A stretch of 55,299 nt of DNA from an uncultured Gammaproteobacteria bacterium (GTDB lineage: Bacteria; Patescibacteriota; Microgenomatia; CAZETR01; Amesbacteraceae), in contig CAZIVL010000001.1 of assembly GCA_964543035.1 (NCBI GenBank), positions 433,736 through 489,034 of the forward strand, given 5' to 3'. Positions 369 to 35,413 of the stretch are shown here, in pieces (the first letter of the stretch is position 1; each line of letters starts with the position of its first letter). A program made the translations under genes and the position numbers. Under the pieces are notes generated by a model. That model made no database searches, was not told the DNA's origin, and saw only the letters and a program-made list of their open reading frames with translations.

Positions 369-617
369 ATGTGTAATTTTTGTCCAGAACACAACGCTGA
401 AGCAGTACACAAGGCTGGAGATGTAGTGAATCTAAAACTAGGTATAGATTTTGGGAGAACTTTAGTAGATTTAAATACCGTAAGAGATTTAGAACGGCAG
501 TTTGGCACCCTTGTCAGCGGCCCAACCTCTGAAGATCTTGAAGCTGAGGTAACATGGTTTAGGACAATAATTCAAAATCCCAATCCTAGAGACAGTCACG
601 ATGCTGTTCTTCAGTGA
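369..617 (+). CDS. hypothetical protein (82 aa)
   Basis: ORF only. No recognisable motif and no clear RBS. Confidence 0.25.
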   Translation: MCNFCPEHNAEAVHKAGDVVNLKLGIDFGRTLVDLNTVRDLERQFGTLVSGPTSEDLEAEVTWFRTIIQNPNPRDSHDAVLQ

Positions 618-4532: not shown

Positions 4533-5882
4533 ATGTACAAAAAACTGCGCTTTGGGGTCAGGCTCACCACCGCCCTGTTTACAAAATATTATCTAGCCAT
4601 AATTTTGGGTCTGGTTTTAGGCATTGCTAGTTTCATCGGTCTCCCTCCGCTACTTTCCAGGTTGCCCTACATTCGCCCCACCGTGACCATTGCCCAAGTC
4701 GGCCGCTTTACCGAAAAAGATCTCCCATTATCAGTGCTACAAAAAATCTCAATTGGTCTAACTACAGTAGGTGAATCAGGCATTCCCACTCCAGGACTGG
4801 CTAGTAGTTGGCAGGCCACCGATTCCGGCAAAGTATATATATTTACTATTTCAGATCAGCTGCGCTGGCACGACGGCACACCGGTAAAAAGCACAGATAT
4901 TAGTCTCATCTTCAAAGATGCAGAAATTCAGACTCCAGACGATTCGCATCTGATTATCAAACTAAAAAATCCGTTTGCTCCCCTGGCAAGTATTGTCACA
5001 AGACCTCTTTTTAAGACTTCCAAAAATTCTCGACTGATTGGCGTGGGTTCCTACAAGCTCAAGACTATCAGACGAAACGGGGCCTTTATCGAGTCCATTA
5101 CCTTGACTCCAGTCGAAGTCGGTTCCAAGCTTCCACTTCTCAAGTACAATTTTTATTCCTCGCAATCTCAAGCCAGAACTGCCTTCAAGCTAGGACTAGT
5201 GACAGTTGTTCAGGGTGTGAATGAAGTTGAAGATCTGGCCAACTGGCCCAATCTTGAGGTGGAGACACATGTGTCTACCGACCGTCACGTAGTTCTATTC
5301 TTTGATACAGCAGGCGATATGTTCGCCGGAGCTTCAGGAAAAAACTTGAGACTGGCTCTCAACTACGCCATCGACAAGTCCAAATTCCGAGATAGAAGTA
5401 TTGGTCCTCTGGGTCTCAACTCTTGGGCCTACAACGATTCTATTCGCAAATACGACTTTGATCTAAAAAAAGCCAAAGAATTGTTATCCAAAGTAGAAAA
5501 AAAACCTGACCAAATAGACATTACCACTCTGCCCGTATACGAGCAGACTGCTCTCCAGATCAAATCCGATTGGGAGGCCATGGGCCTCAAGGTAAATATC
5601 AAGATAGTCCAAGACATCCCAGACGAATACCAGGTTCTTTTAGTCGCTCAAGTCATTCCCGTCGATCCTGACCAATACAACTTTTGGCATTCCACTCAAG
5701 GCGCCACCAACTTAAGTAGGTTCAACAATCCTCGTATCGACAAATTGCTCGAGGACGGCAGAAAAACCTTAGAGTTAGCCGAGCGCAAGAAGATCTACTC
5801 CGATTTTCAAAGATTCTTATTGGACGAATCTCCCGCCGTCTTCCTCTACTACCCAGAGACCTACACAATTACAAAAAAGTAG
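4533..5882 (+). CDS. ABC transporter substrate-binding protein, family 5 (peptide/nickel type), N-terminally anchored
   Basis: N-terminal TM helix, LRWHDGTPVKSTDI and C-terminal PAVFLYYP motifs typical of SBP_bac_5. No permease or ATPase genes are adjacent. Confidence 0.7.
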   Translation: MYKKLRFGVRLTTALFTKYYLAIILGLVLGIASFIGLPPLLSRLPYIRPTVTIAQVGRFTEKDLPLSVLQKISIGLTTVGESGIPTPGLASSWQATDSGKVYIFTISDQLRWHDGTPVKSTDISLIFKDAEIQTPDDSHLIIKLKNPFAPLASIVTRPLFKTSKNSRLIGVGSYKLKTIRRNGAFIESITLTPVEVGSKLPLLKYNFYSSQSQARTAFKLGLVTVVQGVNEVEDLANWPNLEVETHVSTDRHVVLFFDTAGDMFAGASGKNLRLALNYAIDKSKFRDRSIGPLGLNSWAYNDSIRKYDFDLKKAKELLSKVEKKPDQIDITTLPVYEQTALQIKSDWEAMGLKVNIKIVQDIPDEYQVLLVAQVIPVDPDQYNFWHSTQGATNLSRFNNPRIDKLLEDGRKTLELAERKKIYSDFQRFLLDESPAVFLYYPETYTITKK

Positions 5883-7046: not shown

Positions 7047-7337
7047 ATGCCCCTAACACAAAAAATAATTGAAGACGTAATCAGAAAAGTAATCGTGTCA
7101 GAACTAACAGGAGTAAATGCAAAACTCCACACTATTAGTTCTGATGTATCTGTGGTCAAGGAAGATCTGAAAAAACTAAGTAAAAAAGTAAGCAATCTTT
7201 CTGACACTGTTACGAGTTTTTCAGCAGATGTGCAAAAATTTGATCAAGAACAGACAATACTCTCAAGCCAAATTCCAAATCGCACAGATCGCATAGAAAA
7301 ACTCGAAAAAATAGTTTTTGGCTCCATCCAAGCCTAG
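7047..7337 (+). CDS. small coiled-coil protein (96 aa)
   Basis: VKEDLKKLSKKVSNLSDTVTSFSADVQKFDQEQ...RTDRIEKLEKIVFG. It resembles 6822-7037 and 14687-14974 in style. Confidence 0.5.
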   Translation: MPLTQKIIEDVIRKVIVSELTGVNAKLHTISSDVSVVKEDLKKLSKKVSNLSDTVTSFSADVQKFDQEQTILSSQIPNRTDRIEKLEKIVFGSIQA

Positions 7338-7684
7338 TTTTTTCCAACTTTGGCCACGGCCATTTTCTCCATTTTTTCAAGATTGTTACCAATAATTTGA
7401 TATCCAGGTCCTTTAATTTTTTCGAGCTCATCTCGATAGGCTCTTGCTTTAACAAAAAATTCTTCTACTTTTCCCGTATCGACCAAGGGTTTCACCTCAT
7501 CAGGTTTCATCCAGGAGTTTAGCTCTCCAATAGCCCTTCTGGCCTGATCCGAAGATTCAATAATATTTGCGGACTGATCGACAAAATGCTCAAAGTATCT
7601 TGCCCATGAGGCAACACACTCGGCTGGAGTTCGTGCGGATGCCGCTTCGATTAGCAATTTGGTGCTGGTAGTTGCTTCTTCCAT
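7334..7684 (-). CDS. hypothetical protein (116 aa)
   Basis: Clean ORF with no recognisable motif. Its ATG lies 41 nt downstream (minus sense) of the structured element A core. Confidence 0.5.
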   Translation of the reverse strand: MEEATTSTKLLIEAASARTPAECVASWARYFEHFVDQSANIIESSDQARRAIGELNSWMKPDEVKPLVDTGKVEEFFVKARAYRDELEKIKGPGYQIIGNNLEKMEKMAVAKVGKN

Positions 7685-7699
7685 GGACCAATTTTATCT

Positions 7700-8066
7700 T
7701 AAATAACATTAATTTTTGGTGTGTGGGGTCGGAGTTTATATTTTTTGAGTGTGGTAGGTTTCTTGCTTATCGCAAGTCCTTTACTGATTACAACATTTGT
7801 AACCAGATCCACAGCTCTCATTGTCCAATCTGGGGTAATCCCAAATTAGCAATGCAAAATATAAGAGTCCGACCCCCAAAATCTTTCTCGAGCATGCTCG
7901 TTATCCAAAGCGCAATTGCTTTGAAAAAAGAGTGTTCACTCGATCGAAATTTCGACGAGATCGTGAAAATTACTTACAGGGGTGTCCATGAAACAAGACA
8001 AGCCAATTGGCCCATCCATTCATGCTTTGCTCCGCTTCTGGAACAAACTTTTGACACCCCAATTAC
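7700..8066 (-). ncRNA. Candidate structured RNA element, copy A (unknown family), directly 3' of the 289-aa gene
   Basis: Core closed by GGGGTCGGA (7725-7733)/TCCGACCCC (7868-7876). Internal hairpins are CTTGC/GCAAG (7762-7776), TTACA/TGTAA (7788-7802) and TGGG-GTAAT-CCCA (7831-7843). A distal stem GGGGTGTC (7979-7986)/GACACCCC (8053-8060) ends 6 nt from the stop codon. The architecture is shared with copy B with compensatory changes. Strand assignment is tentative. Confidence 0.6.
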
Positions 8067-8936
8067 TTATCCGAAAAACACGATAAGCACAACTACAATC
8101 ACAACGGCCGCCACGATCGCCAAACCCAGCAAGAAGTTTTCAACTTCCTCTTGAATCTGCTGGATCAGGCGGATGAGGCTATAGTTCGAGCCGGCGGGGT
8201 GAGTCTCAAGCACGGGTGTGTGCCTTGAGTGTTGATCGGAATCGTCCCGGGGCGTGCTGGGCTTGGGCTTCGGCGCCGGCGGAGTGGAAATCGGGGCACG
8301 CGGCTCCATCTTCTTCAAAACTTCGGGCTTCGTCTCCTCGATGGTCACATGCGTGACTGAAACATACACGGTATTCGTGATGTTCATCGAATTGTCGTAC
8401 ACGATCTGGCCGGTGTTGGTCCAATTCCCGTTGCTGTAGTTAAAACCAGCAGAATTCGGACCTGACACGACGTTCGAAACGATGTTGCTATTGCTGACGT
8501 TACCCACGGGGGTAGTCAGTACGGGAGTCGCATTGTTCAGCGGCTCTTCAATGAAAAAAGCTTTCAGAGAAACGTTGAACCAATCGCAATTGGTGCCACT
8601 TACTTTGAATTGCGACCACCCGTTGTAGGGTTGACCATCGGCCAGCGCGAGGCTGTCGACACCCCAAACTTCGGGAATGCCAAAAACAAAGATGCCGCCG
8701 CGATCCGTCACCCCATATTGGATATCGCCATTGGACAAATGAAGTTCAACCAGTGTGTTGTACACGGGCTGAGCATTCTCGTCCTGAACAAGGACCTGCA
8801 CAAAGTACAATGGGCAATCCTTGCCTTCGGGGTGAACCACGGGCTGGCCACAGTCCGCATAGGCCGTAGGAACGAAAGTTCCAACGACGATAACCAGTAA
8901 CAGACCAAACAGGGCGAAGAAGATTTTCTTAGCCAT
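8067..8936 (-). CDS. secreted type I membrane protein with a carboxypeptidase-regulatory-like (CarboxypepD_reg) domain and a C-terminal TM anchor
   Basis: Signal peptide MAKKIFFALFGLLLVIVVGTFVPTAYA, then YFVQVLVQDENAQPVYNTLVELHLSNGDIQYGVTDRGGIFVFG, a Pro-rich PPAPKPKPSTP stretch, and C-terminal LGLAIVAAVVIVVVLIVFFG. RBS AAGGAGG precedes the ATG. It is visibly GC-richer than its neighbours. Confidence 0.75.
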   Translation of the reverse strand: MAKKIFFALFGLLLVIVVGTFVPTAYADCGQPVVHPEGKDCPLYFVQVLVQDENAQPVYNTLVELHLSNGDIQYGVTDRGGIFVFGIPEVWGVDSLALADGQPYNGWSQFKVSGTNCDWFNVSLKAFFIEEPLNNATPVLTTPVGNVSNSNIVSNVVSGPNSAGFNYSNGNWTNTGQIVYDNSMNITNTVYVSVTHVTIEETKPEVLKKMEPRAPISTPPAPKPKPSTPRDDSDQHSRHTPVLETHPAGSNYSLIRLIQQIQEEVENFLLGLAIVAAVVIVVVLIVFFG

Positions 8937-9194
8937 TTCTACTGGACCTCCTTAAAGGCCAGGTGTTTACACTCAGATGCAAGCATCTAAGGTAAACCAA
9001 AAAAGAAAATAGGGTTGATTTCACAGGCGTATTGAACGCAGCGGAGACACAAGATAAGGCTCGGGCTAGCACTCCCTTGCACTATCACTAGTGTCACCAA
9101 AAGGTGACAATAATTTGTGTCCCCATTGCGTCCAACAGACCAATGAAAACCCTTTAGTAATTCTCGAATCTCGATTTTTAATGTACTAGACTTC

Positions 9195-9266
9195 TGCATT
9201 TTCGGTCTACCGAAGCACGCTTTGTGCGTAGGAGACCTCATCAGCCCCGCTCAGCGGAGTAATGCA
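9195..9266 (-). ncRNA. Hammerhead ribozyme, type III topology (candidate)
   Basis: The reverse complement reads UGCAUU-A-CUCCGC-UGA-GCGGGG-CUGAUGA-GGUCU..(24 nt)..AGACC-GAA-AAUGCA. All invariant core nucleotides are present in order, and stems I (6 bp), II (5 bp plus extension) and III (6 bp) are present. The NUH site is UUA. Confidence 0.8.
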
Positions 9267-9394
9267 TATGGACCAAATTTTTAAGGGTCTTAAATTACTT
9301 ACGACCTTACGGTCGAAGTATTTTTGCTGTCGGACTTCGTCCGAACTATGACGCTGCATATCTTGATAGATATTTCGCGTCGCAATAAATAATT

Positions 9395-9815
9395 GTTATT
9401 TTCGTGTGTGGGGTAGGTGCTTGTGTCTTGTTTAGTGTGTGTTAATTTCTGCTCGTAGCAGAGTCTTCAACGATTCAAATTGCTCTGAATCGTTTTACAC
9501 GCTTGTTGTCCGTCATCTGGGTTAATCCCAAACGAAAGCCAACTTATACAAGATGCAAATGCACCTACCCTCAAGTTTTGTTTCTCCAGCAATGTCGCTG
9601 AATTAGACGCAACGTCTAACGAGCAAAAAAGCTAGGTATCCAAAACCCGAGAGGTTTCAATCTTCTGCAATCCACAATTAGGATTGACTTGCGGTCAAAG
9701 ACAAAAGTCATTGGCACAGAAGAGAAAGAGTTAGTTATCCGCCAGCCGGTTCTATGTTCAACCACTCGGTTGATTCACGGGGTTATCCCATTACATAGAA
9801 CCAGCTGATCGGTCT
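9395..9815 (-). ncRNA. Candidate structured RNA element, copy B (same family as 7700-8066), directly 3' of the 637-aa gene
   Basis: Core closed by GGGTAGGTGC (9411-9420)/GCACCTACCC (9561-9570). Hairpins are TCTGCT/AGCAGA (9448-9462), AACGATTC/GAATCGTT (9469-9494) and TGGG-TTAAT-CCCA (9518-9530). The distal 15-bp stem 9743-9757/9793-9807 starts 12 nt from the stop codon. Its single mismatch is C.A on plus, which is G.U on minus. Confidence 0.6.
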
Positions 9816-9819
9816 AGTA

Positions 9820-11733
9820 CTAATTCAGAATGGAGTTCACCGACTCAAGTGAGTACGGCGCGTGGACAAGGTCCCACCAGTCTGGTTGAAGAACTCGTTC
9901 CCCGGGTTGTGTGACATTGACTTGCGTCAAGTGTCCAGCTCCATCGCGATACCATAATTGGTTCGCAATAACAAAAGCTGCACGGGTACTACCATCCAAA
10001 TCTACGGCGACATCATTCGCAATGCGATCCACCAACTTCGGCGAATTGCTCACATTGGAGAACGACATCAATCCTTGATTCGACTTGGAAGTTTGGACAT
10101 CCCCAAAAGCATCAAACGACAAGTTCGTCGTTTTTTGATTGGAGCATCCAAATCCGTACTGACTACCATGAATGTTAACCACGCACAAAACGTCGACAGG
10201 GTTGCGAAAAGCAATCCAATTCCCATCTGGGCTTGTGTCTGGCCGAACACCTTTGATTTTCAGGTCACGAACGAACGTGTTCCATTGATCAGTGACATAA
10301 AGTTCGCCATCAATCACATAAGGAATCGTCCAATCACGCGACCATTCTGGCTGGATCTCATTCACATTATCTGTGAAAGTAATCTGTCGAAGGCCAGTAC
10401 CATCAACGCCAACAACCCATAGGTCCGCATTCTGTGCTTCAGGCATTTGAGCCGAAAACACAATCTTGCAGCCATCGGGGCTAATTGACGGGTTCAACAT
10501 CCATGCGCCATCAAGACGGGCGTCCCAAGTGATCAATTCAATAGTTGAACTAATAGGATTTACCAATCGGTAAATCTCAGATGTGTTCTCTTTGTCGTCT
10601 GCGACAACAAAGATGACATGCTCGACTGACACACAAAAACCCGGCTCAGGGATAGTCACCACGGGGGTAGCTTCCTGAGTAGGAGTATCTGTGGGCGTCG
10701 GGCTGGCCGTGGGCGTCGCAGTCGGAGTATTACTGGGCGTAGGCGTGGAACTCGGTGTCTCACTCGGAGTTGGCGTAGGGGAAGAAATTTCGATAAATCC
10801 CTTGCAATCCGGTGAAGAATTACCATCCACAAATGCCAAGTAGGTCCGCGAACCAGGTGTCAGGTCGTAATCGACACCATAATAGGTATTGTTAGTACCC
10901 ATTCTGCCACTAGAGACCAATTCCCATGTATCGAGTCGAAAAACTTCAACCCATTCACCATTACCCCACACGGTAAGAAAAATTACATTATCACCATGGG
11001 AGTACGAAACCTCCAGCAAATCACATTGCGAAGGGGGTTGTACGGTTGGCGTCGGCTGAGTTCCAGTCGGCGTCTGGGTGTTAGTAGGCGTATTCGTCGG
11101 GGTGGATGTGAAAGTGTTCGTCGGAGTACTCGTGTGAGTCTCCGTGGGGGTCGCCGTGAAAGTTGGCGTGTTAGTGTTCGTAGCTGTCGGGGGAATATTG
11201 GTATTTGTTTCAGTTGGAGTGCTGGTCCATGTGGCTGTCTGAGTCACGTTGCATGAGCGGCCGATAAAGGTCGTCCAATGGTGAACCAGATAGTCGAACA
11301 CGGGCACCCCGTTGATCCAAACCCAACCTCCGCGATGAACGTCAAACTGAACTTTGATACAACCTTCGATATTCAAATCGAGAGACAACTCAATGTCGCC
11401 TCCAGGTTGAACCCACTTCTGACCCGTCCCGGCCAAATGAATCTGACCGTGAAAGACGGTAGCGTCAAATGCGTCGAGTTCGACATCACAGACACTCTGA
11501 CCCTTATTATGGATCACAACAGAAGAAGAACCTTCGCCGCCACCGGAAGCATATTCCAGATTCCAGTCTTCGCAGGGCTTAGGCGTGCTCGTCATCTCGG
11601 GCGTCGCGGAAATCGCGGCCGTCGGAGTGGCTTCGGAATCAGCTTTCACTGTCCGTGTCGGATAAGAACCAATGGCGGATGCCAAAAGGCTTAAAACCAA
11701 AACCCAAAACGTAGGCTTACGGAACTTGTTCAT
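9820..11733 (-). CDS. secreted multidomain protein: signal peptide, two Cys-containing domains joined by PT-rich linkers, and a C-terminal TolB-like (PD40) beta-propeller
   Basis: MNKFRKPTFWVLVLSLLASAIG signal peptide. Long TPT/PTxT linkers. PD40-type repeats NPSISPDGCKIVFSA and RPDTSPDGNWIAFRN. High GC with C/G-rich third positions compared with flanking genes. Confidence 0.8.
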   Translation of the reverse strand: MNKFRKPTFWVLVLSLLASAIGSYPTRTVKADSEATPTAAISATPEMTSTPKPCEDWNLEYASGGGEGSSSVVIHNKGQSVCDVELDAFDATVFHGQIHLAGTGQKWVQPGGDIELSLDLNIEGCIKVQFDVHRGGWVWINGVPVFDYLVHHWTTFIGRSCNVTQTATWTSTPTETNTNIPPTATNTNTPTFTATPTETHTSTPTNTFTSTPTNTPTNTQTPTGTQPTPTVQPPSQCDLLEVSYSHGDNVIFLTVWGNGEWVEVFRLDTWELVSSGRMGTNNTYYGVDYDLTPGSRTYLAFVDGNSSPDCKGFIEISSPTPTPSETPSSTPTPSNTPTATPTASPTPTDTPTQEATPVVTIPEPGFCVSVEHVIFVVADDKENTSEIYRLVNPISSTIELITWDARLDGAWMLNPSISPDGCKIVFSAQMPEAQNADLWVVGVDGTGLRQITFTDNVNEIQPEWSRDWTIPYVIDGELYVTDQWNTFVRDLKIKGVRPDTSPDGNWIAFRNPVDVLCVVNIHGSQYGFGCSNQKTTNLSFDAFGDVQTSKSNQGLMSFSNVSNSPKLVDRIANDVAVDLDGSTRAAFVIANQLWYRDGAGHLTQVNVTQPGERVLQPDWWDLVHAPYSLESVNSILN

Positions 11734-11873
11734 TTTGCAATCAATCCTTTCAGGGTGATTACGTGCTGATGTACGCCTTGCTTGATTCGTCTGGGTTGAG
11801 AACGATTAACCCTCCTGGGTCTTTCTTTCTTAACCTTGCGGGCTTCAATAGACAAAGTAAATTTGTCAGCCAT
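11730..11873 (-). CDS. small basic protein (47 aa), translationally coupled to the 637-aa gene; not in the ORF track
   Basis: My translation is MADKFTLSIEARKVKKERPRRVNRSQPRRIKQGVHQHVITLKGLIAK. A strong RBS is present (AAGGAGGttcttATG). Its stop overlaps the next start as ATGA (11730-11733). Confidence 0.5.
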   Translation of the reverse strand: MADKFTLSIEARKVKKERPRRVNRSQPRRIKQGVHQHVITLKGLIAK

Positions 11874-12418
11874 AAGAACCTCCTTGGCTCTTATTTTTCA
11901 AAAAAGTACACGATGGTGAACGAACAGGTGATAGACTTTTCCCTAAAGTCTCTTCAGCGTATTACATGTCTAGACATTTTTTTGTCCATTACATGAATAA
12001 GTCTGGTTGCGACATACGTCACTATAAATCCTTCAGCTTGAGGTGCTGACAAAATGTGGATTTATGCAGGGTTTACGAACGGGGAAATAATAGGGGGTAA
12101 TAGAGGAAGATGCGAGGTGTGAAACGCAGTGGAAACCCAAATAACATTAGTATGATCAGTACCTGTCGGTTCAACAAAAATTGACTTTAACCAACAACTA
12201 ATCCCTTACCAAATCACTAGATTCCCAATGCGTCTCACAAGATGCACTTCCTTTAAACTAACTCTAAAACCTCTCTTTTTAACGTGCTAGCGTTATTAAG
12301 TAGTTACAGGATTAGTCTGAAAGCTATTTCCAGGCTTCCTAACTACGACTATAGGATACCATTAATCCCATAGTTTGTCAAGGGCAAATACATATCAGAT
12401 ACTCATTCTTCCCTCTCC

Positions 12419-14686
12419 TTGAGAAGGAGCGGGATTGAGGGTGAGGTATTGGCAAGCCTTGGATGCTATGATTTATATATGGAACCAGTAGTTCTCACTC
12501 TTCGTGTCCCCAAGACTTCGGAAAACACTCCCGAGCAGACGGCCCAGCTCCTGGCCTCACTGTCGCGCGCTACTTCAAAAGCAGGTCTTCTGGGTGGCAA
12601 AAATTTGCACCTTAGTCTGGAGGTCACAGTTCTAAATGGTCTCATTACTTTTATTATCGTCACCCCCAAATCACTAGAGTCTTTTGTCCGCTCTCAAATG
12701 CTCGCCACTTATCCCGACGTCGTCATAGAAATTATCGAAGATTATCTGAAAGACTGGTCAACTGAGAAACTGACCAACTGGTCAACTACGGTTGTCCGTC
12801 AACAGTACGCCCAATTCTTTCCACTAAGAGATTACGCCGACTACAAAGAGGTCGACCCTATGCTTCCTGTTTTGGGAGTACTATCAAAAGCCGCCGAAGG
12901 GGACAAAGTCTTACTGCAGTTTGTCTTGACCCCTGCTCCCTCATCTGTGCAAAAAAATGCTTATAGATATCTGCATCCTCAAACTGTCGAAAAAGCTCCC
13001 ACTCCAGAAGGCAAGAAACTGATCGATGACAAGCTATCTCAGCCCTTAGTCGGAGTCTCTATTCATCTGGCTACCTCAAATCCATTTCTGATTCCGGATA
13101 TTGCCGGCTCCATGTCCGTACTCAACAGACCAGATGGCAACAGCCTCATTTCCCGCAAACCTATGCCTTGGGAAAAGCGTGCACTTTGGCAATGTATTAT
13201 TAATCGCAAACCATTTAGCAATCTAACCATTCAGCCATCAGTATTAAATGTCATGGAGCTATCATCTCTTTGGCACTTACCAGGGATCTACACCAAGCTA
13301 CCCAATGTGGCTTGGTCAGCTCTCGCCGCCTCAGTCACCGAACCCCCTGAAAATTTACCCATATATTCTAACGATGTCATCCCGAGCAACGTCGAGGGAT
13401 CCCTTTCAACTCCCCAAGAGATTTCTCCGCGCGCTTCGCTTGGTCGAAATGACATTAATAATGACATTAACTTTTTTGCCAAAACCCAATTTAGAAACCA
13501 AGACGTCATCTTTGGCATCAAGCTCGAAGACCGTCTCAGACACACATATATCCTGGGCAAGTCCGGAACTGGTAAATCGACATTGCTCGAAAACATGGCG
13601 GTCGACGATTTTAAAAAGGGCAGGGGAGTCGCTTTCATCGATCCTCATGGAGACGCCTGTGACAATCTTTTGAATTACATTCCCAAAAATCGCATCAACG
13701 ACACCATCTACTTCAACCCCGCCGACCGCGAGCACCCCGTCAGTCTAAATATTTTAGAAGTCGACAATCCCGATCAAGCCGAGCTGGTGGCCTCTGGTAT
13801 AGTCTCCATCTTCTACAAGCTGTATGGCAGGTCTTGGGGTCCCAGGCTCGAGTATATCCTGCGAAATACCCTCCTCACACTTACTCAGATCCCCGGCAGC
13901 ACCTTGCCCGACGTCATCAAAATGCTGACGCAAAAAGATTTTCGCCAGAAGATCTACAAGCAGATGAAAAACGAGCAGTTACTAAGCTTCTGGCAAAACG
14001 AGTTTGACGTCTTAGAAGAAAAGACCCGAGCCGAGCAGATCAGCTCCATTCTCAACAAAGTCGGCCAGTTTGTAAACTCGCCTCTCATTCACGATCTCAT
14101 CTCTCACCCCAAGTCGACTATCAATCTTGAAAAAGTCCTAGACGAAGGCAAGATCCTGATTGCCAATCTGTCTCAAGGAAAATTGGGTGAGGACAATGCG
14201 ACACTTCTGGGAGCCATGCTCATTACCAAATTGCAGCTATCTGCCATGAAGCGGGTGGACATGCCCAAAGAAGACCGCAAAGAGTTTTTCCTATATGTGG
14301 ACGAGTTTCAAAACTTTGCCACCAATTCCTTTACCAAGATCCTCTCCGAGGCTCGCAAATTTAGGCTCGGCCTAGTACTCGCCAATCAATATATTTCCCA
14401 GATTCCCGAAGAGATCCAAAAAGCCATCTTTGGCAATGCCGGCACTGTCATCTCATTTGTCGTGGGTGCCGAGGACGCCCGGGTTATGGAAGCCGAATTT
14501 GGCAAGATCTTTACCAAAGAAGCTCTGGTTTCCCTCACCAAGCATCAGATAGCTCTCAAAATGACGATTGATAACTCTCTTTCCCAACCCTTCTCGGCCT
14601 ACACTCTTCCACCATTCAAATCCACAAATATGAACCGCGACAAAGTCATCGAATCCTCCAGACAAAGATACGCTCTAAAAAAATAG
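12419..14686 (+). CDS. P-loop ATPase of the TraD/VirD4 (type IV coupling protein)/HerA-like superfamily with a ~360-aa uncharacterised N-terminal region
   Basis: Walker A ILGKSGTGKSTLLEN followed by FIDPHGD. Walker B FFLYVDEFQNFAT. C-terminal GNAGTVISFVVGAEDA resembles the TraD/VirD4 motif. The TTG at 12419 lies inside hairpin 12411-12433, so the likely true start is ATG 12479 (MEPVVLTL). Confidence 0.75.
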   Translation: MRRSGIEGEVLASLGCYDLYMEPVVLTLRVPKTSENTPEQTAQLLASLSRATSKAGLLGGKNLHLSLEVTVLNGLITFIIVTPKSLESFVRSQMLATYPDVVIEIIEDYLKDWSTEKLTNWSTTVVRQQYAQFFPLRDYADYKEVDPMLPVLGVLSKAAEGDKVLLQFVLTPAPSSVQKNAYRYLHPQTVEKAPTPEGKKLIDDKLSQPLVGVSIHLATSNPFLIPDIAGSMSVLNRPDGNSLISRKPMPWEKRALWQCIINRKPFSNLTIQPSVLNVMELSSLWHLPGIYTKLPNVAWSALAASVTEPPENLPIYSNDVIPSNVEGSLSTPQEISPRASLGRNDINNDINFFAKTQFRNQDVIFGIKLEDRLRHTYILGKSGTGKSTLLENMAVDDFKKGRGVAFIDPHGDACDNLLNYIPKNRINDTIYFNPADREHPVSLNILEVDNPDQAELVASGIVSIFYKLYGRSWGPRLEYILRNTLLTLTQIPGSTLPDVIKMLTQKDFRQKIYKQMKNEQLLSFWQNEFDVLEEKTRAEQISSILNKVGQFVNSPLIHDLISHPKSTINLEKVLDEGKILIANLSQGKLGEDNATLLGAMLITKLQLSAMKRVDMPKEDRKEFFLYVDEFQNFATNSFTKILSEARKFRLGLVLANQYISQIPEEIQKAIFGNAGTVISFVVGAEDARVMEAEFGKIFTKEALVSLTKHQIALKMTIDNSLSQPFSAYTLPPFKSTNMNRDKVIESSRQRYALKK

Positions 14687-33979: not shown

Positions 33980-33984
33980 TTAAG

Positions 33985-34056
33985 TCGGGGTGCAGGGAAT
34001 TGAACCCTGTACTTCTCGCTCCCAAAGCGAGCGTTCTACCGATGAACTACACCCCG
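33985..34056 (-). tRNA. tRNA-Pro (anticodon TGG)
   Basis: The reverse complement is CGGGGTG-TA-GTTC-ATCGGTA-GAAC-G-CTCGC-TTTGGGA-GCGAG-AAGTA-CAGGG-TTCAATT-CCCTG-CACCCCG-A. Confidence 0.85.
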
Positions 34057-34069
34057 ATATTGCTATTAT

Positions 34070-34189
34070 AGCGAAAAGAGCGTTCTATCACGCCCTTCAC
34101 GACTCGCGAATGCCGTGCATGAGCGAGCAAGTGAAGCAAGGGATATGAAATATAGCGCACTATATTTCATACCGATGAACTACACCCCG
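34070..34189 (-). pseudogene. tRNA-Pro 5'-half fragment, split by an ~82-nt hairpin-rich insert
   Basis: gagcgttcta (34078-34087) and taccgatgaactacaccccg (34170-34189) together reproduce 34029-34056 of the intact gene. They are separated by an insert bounded by TA on both sides that contains an 11-bp perfect hairpin (34145-34170). Confidence 0.6.
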
Positions 34190-34815
34190 GACGTGAGTAA
34201 TTCTACCAATTTACTCACCAACTTTCTCTTAGTCGTCACTTTTGCCCGTCCCGGCACCTCAATAGTCAGACAACCTTTGGCGATTTTTTTTCTAATCAAC
34301 CACGTGCTCACAAACCCTCTCGTTCCTTGTTTGTCATCCACAGTTGACATTATTCGCCCGCCTTTTACTTGATGGCCCAGAGCCACATCGTCCAAACCAT
34401 TAAACATTTTTAGACCACAGTCATCCACGGCTAACTCAATTTTTTTCCAAATAGTAGGGGACAACTGTACATTATCATCGTATAAATAAAATTCGTCAGT
34501 CAGATCCGTATCTTCATGAAAATCGATCATCAGTTCAAAACTGTAATTCCTAAAAATTTGCATCGCTTCCATGATTTCTGGGTCAGTCGCTCCATCCACA
34601 AAGTTCCTATTTAGATCCAACCCATTCACATTTGTCCTGGTCCCAGCCTGCACTGCAGACTTACTCACAACCGGGATATACACAACATCTGAGAGCTTGT
34701 GTGATTTACTCTTCATCACCTCTTCCAACACTTTTGCAGTCTCATATTCATCCCCATGCATGCCAGAAATTATTAGAATTATTGGATCTTTACCGAGGAC
34801 AAAATGTTGCATCAT
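34180..34815 (-). CDS. M14-like zinc carboxypeptidase/succinylglutamate desuccinylase-aspartoacylase superfamily protein
   Basis: ILIISGMHGDEYE (HxxE zinc motif) and DFHED (a second His ligand context). The last codons read into the tRNA-Pro fragment. Confidence 0.55.
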   Translation of the reverse strand: MMQHFVLGKDPIILIISGMHGDEYETAKVLEEVMKSKSHKLSDVVYIPVVSKSAVQAGTRTNVNGLDLNRNFVDGATDPEIMEAMQIFRNYSFELMIDFHEDTDLTDEFYLYDDNVQLSPTIWKKIELAVDDCGLKMFNGLDDVALGHQVKGGRIMSTVDDKQGTRGFVSTWLIRKKIAKGCLTIEVPGRAKVTTKRKLVSKLVELLTSGV

Positions 34816-34816
34816 G

Positions 34817-34901
34817 TGCCGAGGAAGGGACTCGAACCCTTACAGCCGTTTAAAGCTGGGGGCTCTTAAGGCCCCTGCGTCTACCATTCCGCCACCTCGG
34901 C
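34817..34901 (-). tRNA. tRNA-Leu (anticodon TAA), long variable arm
   Basis: The reverse complement is GCCGAGG-TG-GCGGAATGGTAGACGC-A-GGGGC-CTTAAGA-GCCCC-(variable arm CAGCTTTAAACGGCTGT)-AAGGG-TTCGAGT-CCCTT-CCTCGGC-A. Confidence 0.85.
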
Positions 34902-34907
34902 ATGTTG

Positions 34908-34980
34908 TGGTCGCTAAGGGACTCGAACCCCTGACTTTCTCAGTGTAAATGAGACGCTCTACCAACTGAGCTAAGCGACC
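34908..34980 (-). tRNA. tRNA-Val (anticodon TAC)
   Basis: The reverse complement is GGTCGCT-TA-GCTC-AGTTGGTA-GAGC-G-TCTCA-TTTACAC-TGAGA-AAGTC-AGGGG-TTCGAGT-CCCTT-AGCGACC-A. Confidence 0.85.
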
Positions 34981-34984
34981 AGTG

Positions 34985-35066
34985 TGCCGGAAAGAGGACT
35001 CGAACCTCCATGCCTTGCGGCGCTACCACCTCAAGGTAGTGCGTCTACCAGTTTCGCCATCCCGGC
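34985..35066 (-). tRNA. tRNA-Leu (anticodon GAG), long variable arm
   Basis: The reverse complement is GCCGGGA-TG-GCGAAACTGGTAGACGC-A-CTACC-TTGAGGT-GGTAG-(variable arm)-GGAGG-TTCGAGT-CCTCT-TTCCGGC-A. Confidence 0.85.
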
Positions 35067-35083
35067 ATAAGCCAATTATAGCC

Positions 35084-35104
35084 TAGTGGGCGAGAGAGGA
35101 CTCG
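35084..35104. repeat. 21-bp direct repeat of the 3' end of tRNA-Leu(CAG) (second copy 35186-35206)
   Basis: tagtgggcgagagaggactcg occurs identically at 35084-35104 and 35186-35206. The second copy is the acceptor/T-arm 3' end of the intact tRNA. The 81-nt spacer contains ATTGTGGC-GAAA-GCCACAAT (35143-35162). Confidence 0.8.
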
Positions 35105-35188
35105 CACGCGTAGCGCGTCGCGACAGCGACGAGCTCCACGACATTGTGGCGAAAGCCACAATCTACATGGGCTACTGTATAGCTTTAG

Positions 35189-35274
35189 TGGGCGAGAGAG
35201 GACTCGAACCTCCACGACCGATTAAGGTCACTAGCACCTGAAGCTAGCGCGTCTACCAGTTTCACCACTCGCCC
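35189..35274 (-). tRNA. tRNA-Leu (anticodon CAG), long variable arm
   Basis: The reverse complement is GGGCGAG-TG-GTGAAACTGGTAGACGC-G-CTAGC-TTCAGGT-GCTAG-(variable arm)-GGAGG-TTCGAGT-CCTCT-CTCGCCC-A. Confidence 0.85.
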
Positions 35275-35312
35275 AAAGTAATCATATTATATAATATGGG
35301 AGGTATCTTTTC

Positions 35313-35385
35313 GCCGAGTTAGCCAAGGTGGTCAAGGCGGGCGCCTGAAGAGCGTCATATTAAGGTTCGACTCCTTAACTCGGCA
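35313..35385 (+). tRNA. tRNA-Phe (anticodon GAA), atypical D arm
   Basis: GCCGAGT-TA-GCCA-AGGTGGTCA-AGGC-G-GGCGC-CTGAAGA-GCGTC-ATAT-TAAGG-TTCGACT-CCTTA-ACTCGGC-A. The D stem has only 3 clean pairs. Confidence 0.6.
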
Positions 35386-35413
35386 CAAATCAATCCTGTA
35401 GTATAATTAAAGG

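Follow-up and report, generated by a model that had tools for sequence, protein, structure and literature searches.

A candidate type III hammerhead ribozyme between two same-strand genes of a Patescibacteria chromosome, with a subfamily of related bacterial hammerheads

Does the gap of 883 nt between two minus-strand genes of a Patescibacteria chromosome hold a self-cleaving ribozyme, and what would its cleavage do to an RNA transcribed across it? The question is raised by a short element in a stretch of DNA of 55,299 nucleotides, referred to throughout as the window, which belongs to the Patescibacteria (CPR, Microgenomates group), has a G+C content of 44-45% and carries many tRNA genes. The original prediction had placed a complete hammerhead in an intergenic region and on the same strand as both neighbouring genes; this placement is borne out, as the ribozyme shares the minus strand with the genes of the 637-aa and 289-aa proteins. 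The genes that matter for the argument are listed below.

12419-14686: gene of a VirD4/TrwB-like ATPase (assigned by Pfam)
9820-11733, minus strand: gene of a 637-aa secreted protein, the upstream cistron (open reading frame; Pfam PD40, E 1.6e-5)
8067-8936, minus strand: gene of a 289-aa secreted or membrane-anchored protein, the downstream cistron (open reading frame; no Pfam match)

The 637-aa protein displays a signal peptide, Pro/Thr-rich linkers and a PD40 beta-propeller repeat, and the stop codon of its gene lies 553 nt before the ribozyme. Between the ribozyme and the ATG of the 289-aa gene there are 258 nt, with AAGGAGG ahead of the ATG.

Hammerheads are known from viroids, satellite RNAs, plants, animals and bacteria. 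The minus-strand RNA of positions 9195-9266 reads UGCAUU A CUCCGC UGA GCGGGG CUGAUGA GGUCUCC[UACGCACAAAGCGUGCUUC]GG U AGACC GAA AAUGCA. Its parts were located by reading the sequence, by folding, and by a type III descriptor of our own, which demands CUGANGA, GAA, an H17 other than G and, in each of the three stems, 4 bp or more; two covariance models, R1 and R2, described further on, also bear on the element as a whole.

9195-9266, minus strand: type III hammerhead with complete core, 72 nt (sequence, descriptor, models R1 and R2)
9261-9266, minus strand: 5' strand of stem III, UGCAUU (positions 16.6-16.1), pairing with 9195-9200
9259-9260, minus strand: predicted cleavage site, after H17 (A9260) and before C9259, which is position 1.1 (hammerhead numbering)
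9245-9259, minus strand: stem I hairpin CUCCGC-UGA-GCGGGG, 6 bp including one G.U pair, with a loop of 3 nt (sequence, fold, descriptor)
9238-9244, minus strand: catalytic core C3-U4-G5-A6-U7-G8-A9, CUGAUGA (sequence)
9204-9237, minus strand: extended stem II (minimum free energy fold, and the same plan in relatives)
9201-9203, minus strand: core G12-A13-A14, GAA (sequence; invariant in the family)
9195-9200, minus strand: 3' strand of stem III, AAUGCA (positions 15.1-15.6), with A15.1 pairing to U16.1 (sequence and descriptor)

Helices I, II and III thus comprise 6, 5 (+2) and 6 bp around the core, and both the A15.1-U16.1 and the G10.1-C11.1 pair are present. The base of stem II is formed by GGUCU and AGACC, 5 bp closed by G10.1-C11.1, beyond which a CC/GG step, with a U bulging from its 3' strand, leads through an internal loop into a GCAC/GUGC hairpin. 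The cleavage triplet is UUA, so that H17 is A and not G, in keeping with the NUH rule. Strand order runs from the 5' strand of stem III through H17, stem I with its loop, the core, stem II with its loop and GAA to the 3' strand of stem III; stems I and II are looped and stem III is open, which is the type III arrangement. On re-reading, the sequence given in the original prediction proved exact, and each invariant core position that it had named was found in order by the sequence reading and by the descriptor. Its three stems and type III topology were recovered independently by the descriptor as 6/5/6 bp, and hammerhead numbering leads to the same predicted junction, 9260/9259.

Such an arrangement could in principle arise by chance. 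The bare heptamer CTGATGA occurs 10 times in the window, which equals the chance prediction, and the signal therefore resides in the full arrangement and not in the heptamer. The descriptor, applied to both strands of the window, returned a single match, that at 9195-9266 on the minus strand. In 100 dinucleotide-preserving shuffles the mean number of matches was 0.02 when the stems were set at 4/4/4 bp and 0 at 5/5/5. A chance look-alike is ruled out by these shuffles together with the two covariance models. That the window holds no second hammerhead, claimed earlier from a scan by eye, agrees with the descriptor, with R1 and R2 run with filters off, and with Rfam, none of which found another one in the window.

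Relatives were sought in two ways. The VirD4-like gene served as the anchor for a first set of 80 loci, 1.33 Mb in all, in which the type III descriptor located canonical type III hammerheads at three, L002, L008 and L011. Metagenome contigs were scanned for a stem I and core pattern derived from the window, CCGCNNNGCGGGNCTGATGAG. About 24 matches to this pattern complete a full hammerhead, and about 100 matches in GC-rich coding DNA complete none, which constitutes a built-in negative control. Descriptor matches with very long loops in L158 and L040 were discarded as probable false positives. Among six pattern matches on viral contigs five are incomplete hammerheads; L202, a predicted viral contig, carries one member of the family. 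Altogether about 40 type III hammerheads were found in related Patescibacteria and metagenome loci, and every member found is of type III.

These relatives share an architecture. Stem I follows the consensus YCCCGC-NNA-GCGGGR; stem II consists of a 5-bp segment IIa, a CC...GG step, a single C or U bulging from the 3' strand and a variable hairpin insert; stem III has 4-9 bp and differs in sequence from copy to copy. The window sequence matches every point of this plan. The last base of loop 1 is an invariant A in 18 relatives though the search pattern had left this base free, and the UGA loop of the window conforms to it. GUC-type cleavage sites dominate in the family: of 33 unique members, 25 have C at H17, 4 have A and 4 have U. 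The UUA of the window is a minority form. Two elements are conserved among family members and recur in the window: the A that forms the third base of loop 1 (9251 in the window) and the lone bulged C or U that follows 5 bp of stem II (the U at 9209). In the subfamily the bulged base stands at the height of loop 1. These two elements are candidates for a tertiary contact between stems I and II of the kind that favours fast cleavage at physiological Mg2+. A protective hairpin directly 5' of the ribozyme is marginal as a family feature (p ~0.05) and weak in the window, and is not claimed here.

Whether the stems are maintained as pairs was examined in the 18 relatives with the window left out. 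In these, 97.6% of cells are paired, as against 38-49% when the partners are slid by 1-3 columns. Changes on both sides of a pair were seen in 12 of 19 pairs overall, 5 of 6 in stem III and 6 of 7 in stem II, a signal that comes partly from selection, the descriptor having demanded at least 4 bp per stem. The stems of the window, aligned to R1, depart from the family consensus yet stay paired.

Covariance model R1 was built from the 18 relatives and contains no window sequence, its training set having been gathered in part with the window-derived pattern. It scores 9195-9266 on the minus strand at 56.4 bits over the full length (E 3.8e-18, a rough value owing to shortened calibration), the runner-up in the window reaching 13.9 bits. 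Model R2 was built from 7 sibling hammerheads on the same contigs, none of which matches the window-derived pattern; in these siblings stem I has 7 bp and a loop of the GUGU type, and stem II is short. R2 is free of the circularity of R1 because its seven siblings were never selected by that pattern, and it gives the same segment 31.8 bits (E 1.5e-8, again rough because of the shortened calibration) with a runner-up at 11.1 bits. Judged by its sequence and predicted structure, the segment is a hammerhead.

The original prediction had proposed the Rfam hammerhead models as a check, and this search was negative at the gathering score and at E<=10 alike. At the gathering score the whole window yields only 15 tRNAs and no hammerhead. 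The Rfam hammerhead families produce no match on 9100-9360 at E<=10, and a search of 7300-12500 at E<=5 produces neither a hammerhead nor any other ribozyme family; twister, pistol, hatchet and twister-sister likewise gave no match near the window hammerhead in the Rfam scan. The gathering score of RF00008 (Hammerhead_3) is 48.5 bits, which is an operational threshold and not a biochemical definition. The same model gives canonical relatives in L008 and L011 41.9, 34.4 and 33.5 bits, all below 48.5, and misses that of L002 altogether. Since canonical relatives receive 33-42 bits or nothing, RF00008 is insensitive to the bacterial subfamily; its failure on the window sequence reflects the training set of the model, and the negative result is not counted against the window ribozyme because clear relatives are under-scored in the same manner.

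Folding of the window RNA gives -26.2 kcal/mol for the hammerhead and -27.3 kcal/mol for the minimum free energy structure, a gap of 1.1 kcal/mol. The latter keeps stems I and II, while pairing of CAUUA with UGAUG lengthens stem I and competes with stem III and the core; the pairing probability of stem III is about 0.33. The relatives in L002 and L146 have the same competing fold, and other members fold straight into the hammerhead. In terms of the folding model, a gap of 1.1 kcal/mol, in which any tertiary contact is not yet counted, should present no obstacle to the active structure.

The closest genome bears on the conservation of the element. The nearest homologues of the VirD4/TrwB-like ATPase are found in Candidatus Amesbacteria (66% identity) and in other CPR metagenome-assembled genomes, and L002, a Ca. 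Amesbacteria locus, represents the closest genome. It carries a hammerhead about 3.5 kb upstream of its VirD4-like gene on the divergent strand, as in the window. Absence of the segment from homologous loci had been named at the outset as evidence that would tell against the ribozyme; in L002 the hammerhead occupies the equivalent position and is the only island that aligns between the two intergenic regions. The gene 5' of the L002 hammerhead encodes a 500-aa PKD protein which is not homologous to the 637-aa protein of the window, so that synteny is supported solely by the VirD4-like gene and the relative position. An exact look-up of the 289-aa protein returned only L001, a short contig identical to the window and so uninformative for comparison.

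The hammerheads of the family stand between consecutive open reading frames of the same strand, typically with 35-100 nt separating them from the preceding stop codon and 20-130 nt from the start that follows. They usually form same-strand arrays of 2-6 members spaced by about 420-1300 nt: six in L115 and six in L011, three in L008 and three in L159, and two each on at least six other short contigs. The six hammerheads of L011 and the six of L115 are all on one strand, and lie between consecutive genes wherever the order was examined. The window hammerhead is single and lies 258 nt from the next start, in which most relatives differ from it.

Taken together, these observations favour the reading that 9195-9266 on the minus strand is a functional type III hammerhead of a Patescibacteria-like subfamily which cuts itself between two cistrons, a reading to which a probability of about 0.8 is assigned. 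Its most likely role is the cutting of a polycistronic RNA between the 637-aa and the 289-aa genes, where co-transcription of the genes, cleavage in vivo and an effect on expression are all presumed. A cistron-separating role is proposed because the relatives lie between same-strand genes, and because it fits the findings on clustered bacterial hammerheads (PMC3088659). A good promoter-like site is located upstream of the 637-aa gene at 12381-12353, and the minus strand from the 637-aa gene to the ribozyme has no terminator-like site.

By this mechanism, a minus-strand RNA running from the 637-aa towards the 289-aa gene would fold into a three-stem junction, and an internal transesterification would cut it between A9260 and C9259. 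The upstream product would be the mRNA of the 637-aa protein with a 3' UTR of about 560 nt and a 2',3'-cyclic phosphate end. The downstream product would begin with a 5'-OH and the compactly folded ribozyme, behind which would come the 258-nt leader, the ribosome-binding site and the 289-aa open reading frame. The two cistrons would then reside on separate molecules, the stability and translation of which could differ.

Like the type III hammerheads of RF00008, the window element has the CUGAUGA...GAA core, A15.1-U16.1, G10.1-C11.1, an H17 other than G and an open stem III, and by analogy the same chemistry is expected, with 2',3'-cyclic phosphate and 5'-OH ends. It differs from them in a loop 1 of only 3 nt, in the length of stem II, where an insert of 24 nt and a bulged base take the place of a small loop, and in being encoded in a Patescibacteria chromosome instead of forming part of a replicating RNA.

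Clustered bacterial hammerheads have been shown to cut polycistronic transcripts into the expected pieces in vitro (Perreault et al. 2011, PMC3088659). The relatives described here resemble those clusters in forming arrays, in their intergenic, same-strand placement and in the varying identity of the neighbouring genes, and the proposed role, the reduction of long transcripts to gene-length mRNAs, is the same. The window differs from those clusters in having a single copy and in its neighbours, which are genes of secreted or membrane proteins by a VirD4-like ATPase gene. Nor was a sign of prophage or integrase seen among the neighbours examined: Pfam, applied to 7 window proteins on either side of the site and to 12 from L002, L011 and L115, revealed no phage or integrase domain. 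Type II hammerheads are very common in bacteria (PMC3088659), whereas all members found here are of type III.

Twister and other self-cleaving ribozymes occur in 3' UTRs and polycistronic mRNAs of bacteria (Felletti et al. 2017, as summarised in PMC6765202). The proposal that processing of mRNA alters its stability or translation is common to twister and the present hammerheads, the folds being different, and the hammerheads of L002 and L190 likewise lie in a 3' UTR just before a terminator. The glmS ribozyme, for its part, requires GlcN6P and is tied to one gene, and the 5'-OH product of its cleavage determines the fate of the mRNA. Both it and the window hammerhead are chromosomal self-cleaving RNAs of bacteria in an mRNA leader; the hammerhead differs in being ligand-free and in having neighbours that vary. 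The role of bacterial self-cleaving ribozymes outside glmS is largely elusive, and mRNA processing is the leading idea (2019 review, PMC6765202).

The comparison with 3' UTR ribozymes leads to the best surviving alternative, which accepts a real ribozyme and assigns to it the maturation of the 3' end of the 637-aa mRNA, the 289-aa gene having its own promoter. Cleavage would then shorten the long 3' UTR, or RNA arising from read-through, and so give the mRNA a defined end. In L002 a strong intrinsic terminator (GCGGGCcaaaGCCCGC and a U-run) directly follows the hammerhead and no gene is present there, and in L190 a terminator follows after about 35 nt; these two cases make 3'-end trimming a serious rival for the window copy. 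It also accords with the distance of 258 nt to the ATG in the window, with a weak sigma-70-like site past the ribozyme at 9110-9081 on the minus strand, and with the effect that ribozymes in bacterial 3' UTRs can have on expression (PMC6765202). However, most relatives lie 20-130 nt before the next start, which is too close for a promoter, and the minus strand of the window has no terminator-like site past the ribozyme. The promoter-like site is itself a weak match (9/12), and such matches are rarer in the window than in shuffled sequence (3 found, 8.1 expected). On balance, 3'-end maturation of the 637-aa mRNA, with a separate promoter for the downstream gene, is regarded as unlikely for this copy, and separation of two cistrons is preferred.

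A second alternative starts from the variability of the neighbouring genes. The hammerhead might be part of a repeated intergenic module that marks exchangeable cassettes of surface proteins or spreads in genomes, and the cleavage of RNA would then be secondary to cassette turnover or to excised, possibly circular, RNAs between tandem copies. Non-homologous genes do stand beside equivalent hammerheads (the 637-aa PD40 protein in the window, the 500-aa PKD protein in L002). L112 and L108 are 99.5% identical through the last base of stem III and unrelated beyond it, the homology of L115 and L166 ends about 14 nt past the hammerhead, and in L011 an identical 27-nt GC hairpin is repeated ahead of three hammerheads; spliced or circular products have moreover been raised as a possibility by Perreault et al. 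(2011, PMC3088659). The same breakpoints would, however, be expected of metagenome contigs wrongly joined during assembly at a repeated sequence of 60 nt, and with one hammerhead in the window there is no unit that could be excised between two. A Pfam search among the neighbours examined detected no integrase, recombinase or reverse transcriptase.

The intergenic elements of the window itself also speak against such a module. The original prediction had described two cassettes, the 637-aa gene with an element B and the 289-aa gene with an element A. This framing holds only in part: A and B share a real core of 147 nt, but no copy of it was found in related loci. BLAST of A, B and the post-ribozyme leader against about 200 loci found no copies, and neither did a scan of viral contigs with an element pattern whose spacing fits only copy B. 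Both the marking or spreading of cassettes and a secondary role for cleavage are judged quite improbable in the window, and the cutting between cistrons is retained as the preferred reading.

An inactive relic or chance look-alike, in which the extended stem I, the UUA triplet or the loss of a tertiary contact prevents cleavage, might be argued from the negative Rfam result, from the partial sequestration of the core in the most stable fold and from a single copy in a position atypical of most relatives, but it is very improbable: chance is excluded by R1, R2 and the shuffles, every core base is intact, subfamily features left free by the search pattern are retained (the loop 1 A, the CC/GG step and the stem II bulge), and the competing fold, above which the active one lies by only 1.1 kcal/mol, is shared by L002 and L146.

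The ribozyme class, the type III form, the occurrence in bacteria and the intercistronic placement are already known. What is modestly new is the host lineage, the architecture of a subfamily that RF00008 misses, and dense arrays by a VirD4-like gene in several CPR genomes; the literature searched contains no paper linking hammerheads with Patescibacteria or the candidate phyla radiation. Hammerheads are probably under-annotated in CPR genomes, because the curated RF00008 model misses this bacterial subfamily. The related arrays, with a ribozyme between consecutive small genes, are also natural systems of small size in which to ask whether cleavage determines how strongly adjoining cistrons are expressed relative to each other. 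Taken alone, the window is ordinary, representing one more hammerhead in the expected kind of bacterial site.

A wider conjecture, which we consider unlikely, is that hammerhead modules may systematically punctuate whole operons of Patescibacteria, replacing RNase-dependent maturation of mRNA in these reduced genomes, and may mark points at which cassettes of surface-protein genes by the VirD4-like gene are exchanged. RNA between tandem copies might circularise, and the window copy would be one outpost of the system.

The surroundings of the ribozymes contain a further minor feature. The motif DTCTTT occurs within 60 nt downstream in 14 of 41 family members as against a background of 9% (p ~1e-5), the window copy being among those that lack it. 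Some modules combine a conserved hairpin before the ribozyme with DTCTTT after it.

Hammerheads of the window, of the closest genome (L002, Ca. Amesbacteria) and of two related contigs (L008 and L011) score between 33 and 42 bits with the Rfam model RF00008 (Hammerhead_3), below 48.5, or give no match at all. The hammerheads which are missed or under-scored by this model are the canonical ones of Patescibacteria, so that the subfamily will probably escape standard annotation. A full member is also found on one predicted viral contig; it was scored with R1, the covariance model built from 18 relatives with the window copy excluded.

L202 (IMGVR_UViG_3300036980_000702) 4778-4832, plus strand: full subfamily hammerhead, R1 score 50.8 bits

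The hammerheads of the window, L002, L008 and L011 are located 3-8 kb upstream of the VirD4-like gene (12419-14686 in the window), on the strand divergent from it. In three of the related contigs the ribozymes form dense, same-strand arrays, in which consecutive small genes are separated by one ribozyme wherever the gene order was examined.

L011 2347-6371, minus strand: array of 6 hammerhead copies
L115 2423-5284, minus strand: array of 6 hammerhead copies
L008 1285-5210, minus strand: array of 3 hammerhead copies

Two other family members are followed by a strong intrinsic terminator instead of a gene, which suggests that some hammerheads of the family act in 3' UTRs.

L002 170-227, minus strand: hammerhead followed by a strong intrinsic terminator
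L190 about 480-510, plus strand: hammerhead followed by a strong intrinsic terminator

Comparison of related contigs revealed that homology stops at the 3' edge of the hammerhead in two pairs. In the first pair, 99.5% identity extends to the final base of stem III, past which the two contigs are unrelated; the match of the second pair ends ∼14 nt past the ribozyme.

L112 470-700, plus strand, and L108 485-717, minus strand: first breakpoint pair
L115 about 3845 and L166 about 12517: second breakpoint pair

These breakpoints mean either that gene cassettes turn over at the hammerhead modules or that a repeated sequence gave rise to assembly chimeras.

Of the 41 hammerheads, 14 have the motif DTCTTT, often in the form AGTTCTTTRAAA, in the 60 nt downstream of them, while the share for random windows is 9% (p about 1e-5). 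In some cases the motif lies directly 5' of the ribosome-binding site. Examples are present in the 3' flanks at L011 6300 (minus strand), L113 2464 (plus), L115 4811 (minus) and L008 3034 (minus); the 3' flank of the window hammerhead is devoid of the motif. On the 5' side, a hairpin stands ahead of many family hammerheads, among them those of L159, L176, L102 and L011, and its loop is often rich in A; in L011 an identical 27-nt GC hairpin precedes three copies. After cleavage, such a hairpin would end up close to the new 3' end. Such 5' hairpins are no more than marginally enriched relative to the background (p about 0.05), and the one in the window is weak. Two small, stable hairpins are also placed between element B, the repeated segment associated with the 637-aa gene, and the window hammerhead (within 9296-9344).

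Window 9271-9289, minus strand: weak 5'-flank hairpin GACC...GGUC, −3.1 kcal mol−1
Window 9315-9302, minus strand: hairpin CGACC-GUAA-GGUCG with a GNRA-type loop, lengthened to 9320-9296 in the MFE fold
Window 9344-9330, minus strand: hairpin UCGGAC-GAA-GUCCGA
Window 8987-9241, minus strand: 84-aa ORF starting inside the hammerhead

The ORF is probably spurious, because the segment is kept as RNA structure; the identical public contig (L001) carries a 50-aa gene call at the same spot.

Local alignment places elements A and B in the 3' regions of the two flanking genes.

Window 9386-9532, minus strand: element B, 3' region of the 637-aa gene
Window 7700-7845, minus strand: element A, 3' region of the 289-aa gene

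The homology of their common 147-nt core is real (alignment score 55, where shuffled sequences average 19.6 with an sd of 2.6), and the core contains the hairpin UUUGGGAUUA(A/C)CCCAGAU and a CCCCACACAC tract. A search of ∼200 related loci gave no further A/B copies and the Rfam scan gave no match for the element; comparison of the two sequences points weakly to a common fold. The hammerhead follows the end of element B at a distance of ∼120 nt, whereas no hammerhead follows element A.

Elsewhere, the 55-kb window carries 15 tRNA genes, six of which (Pro, Leu, Val, Leu, Leu and Phe) form a tight cluster.

Window 33984-35386 (∼34.0-35.4 kb), both strands: cluster of six tRNA genes
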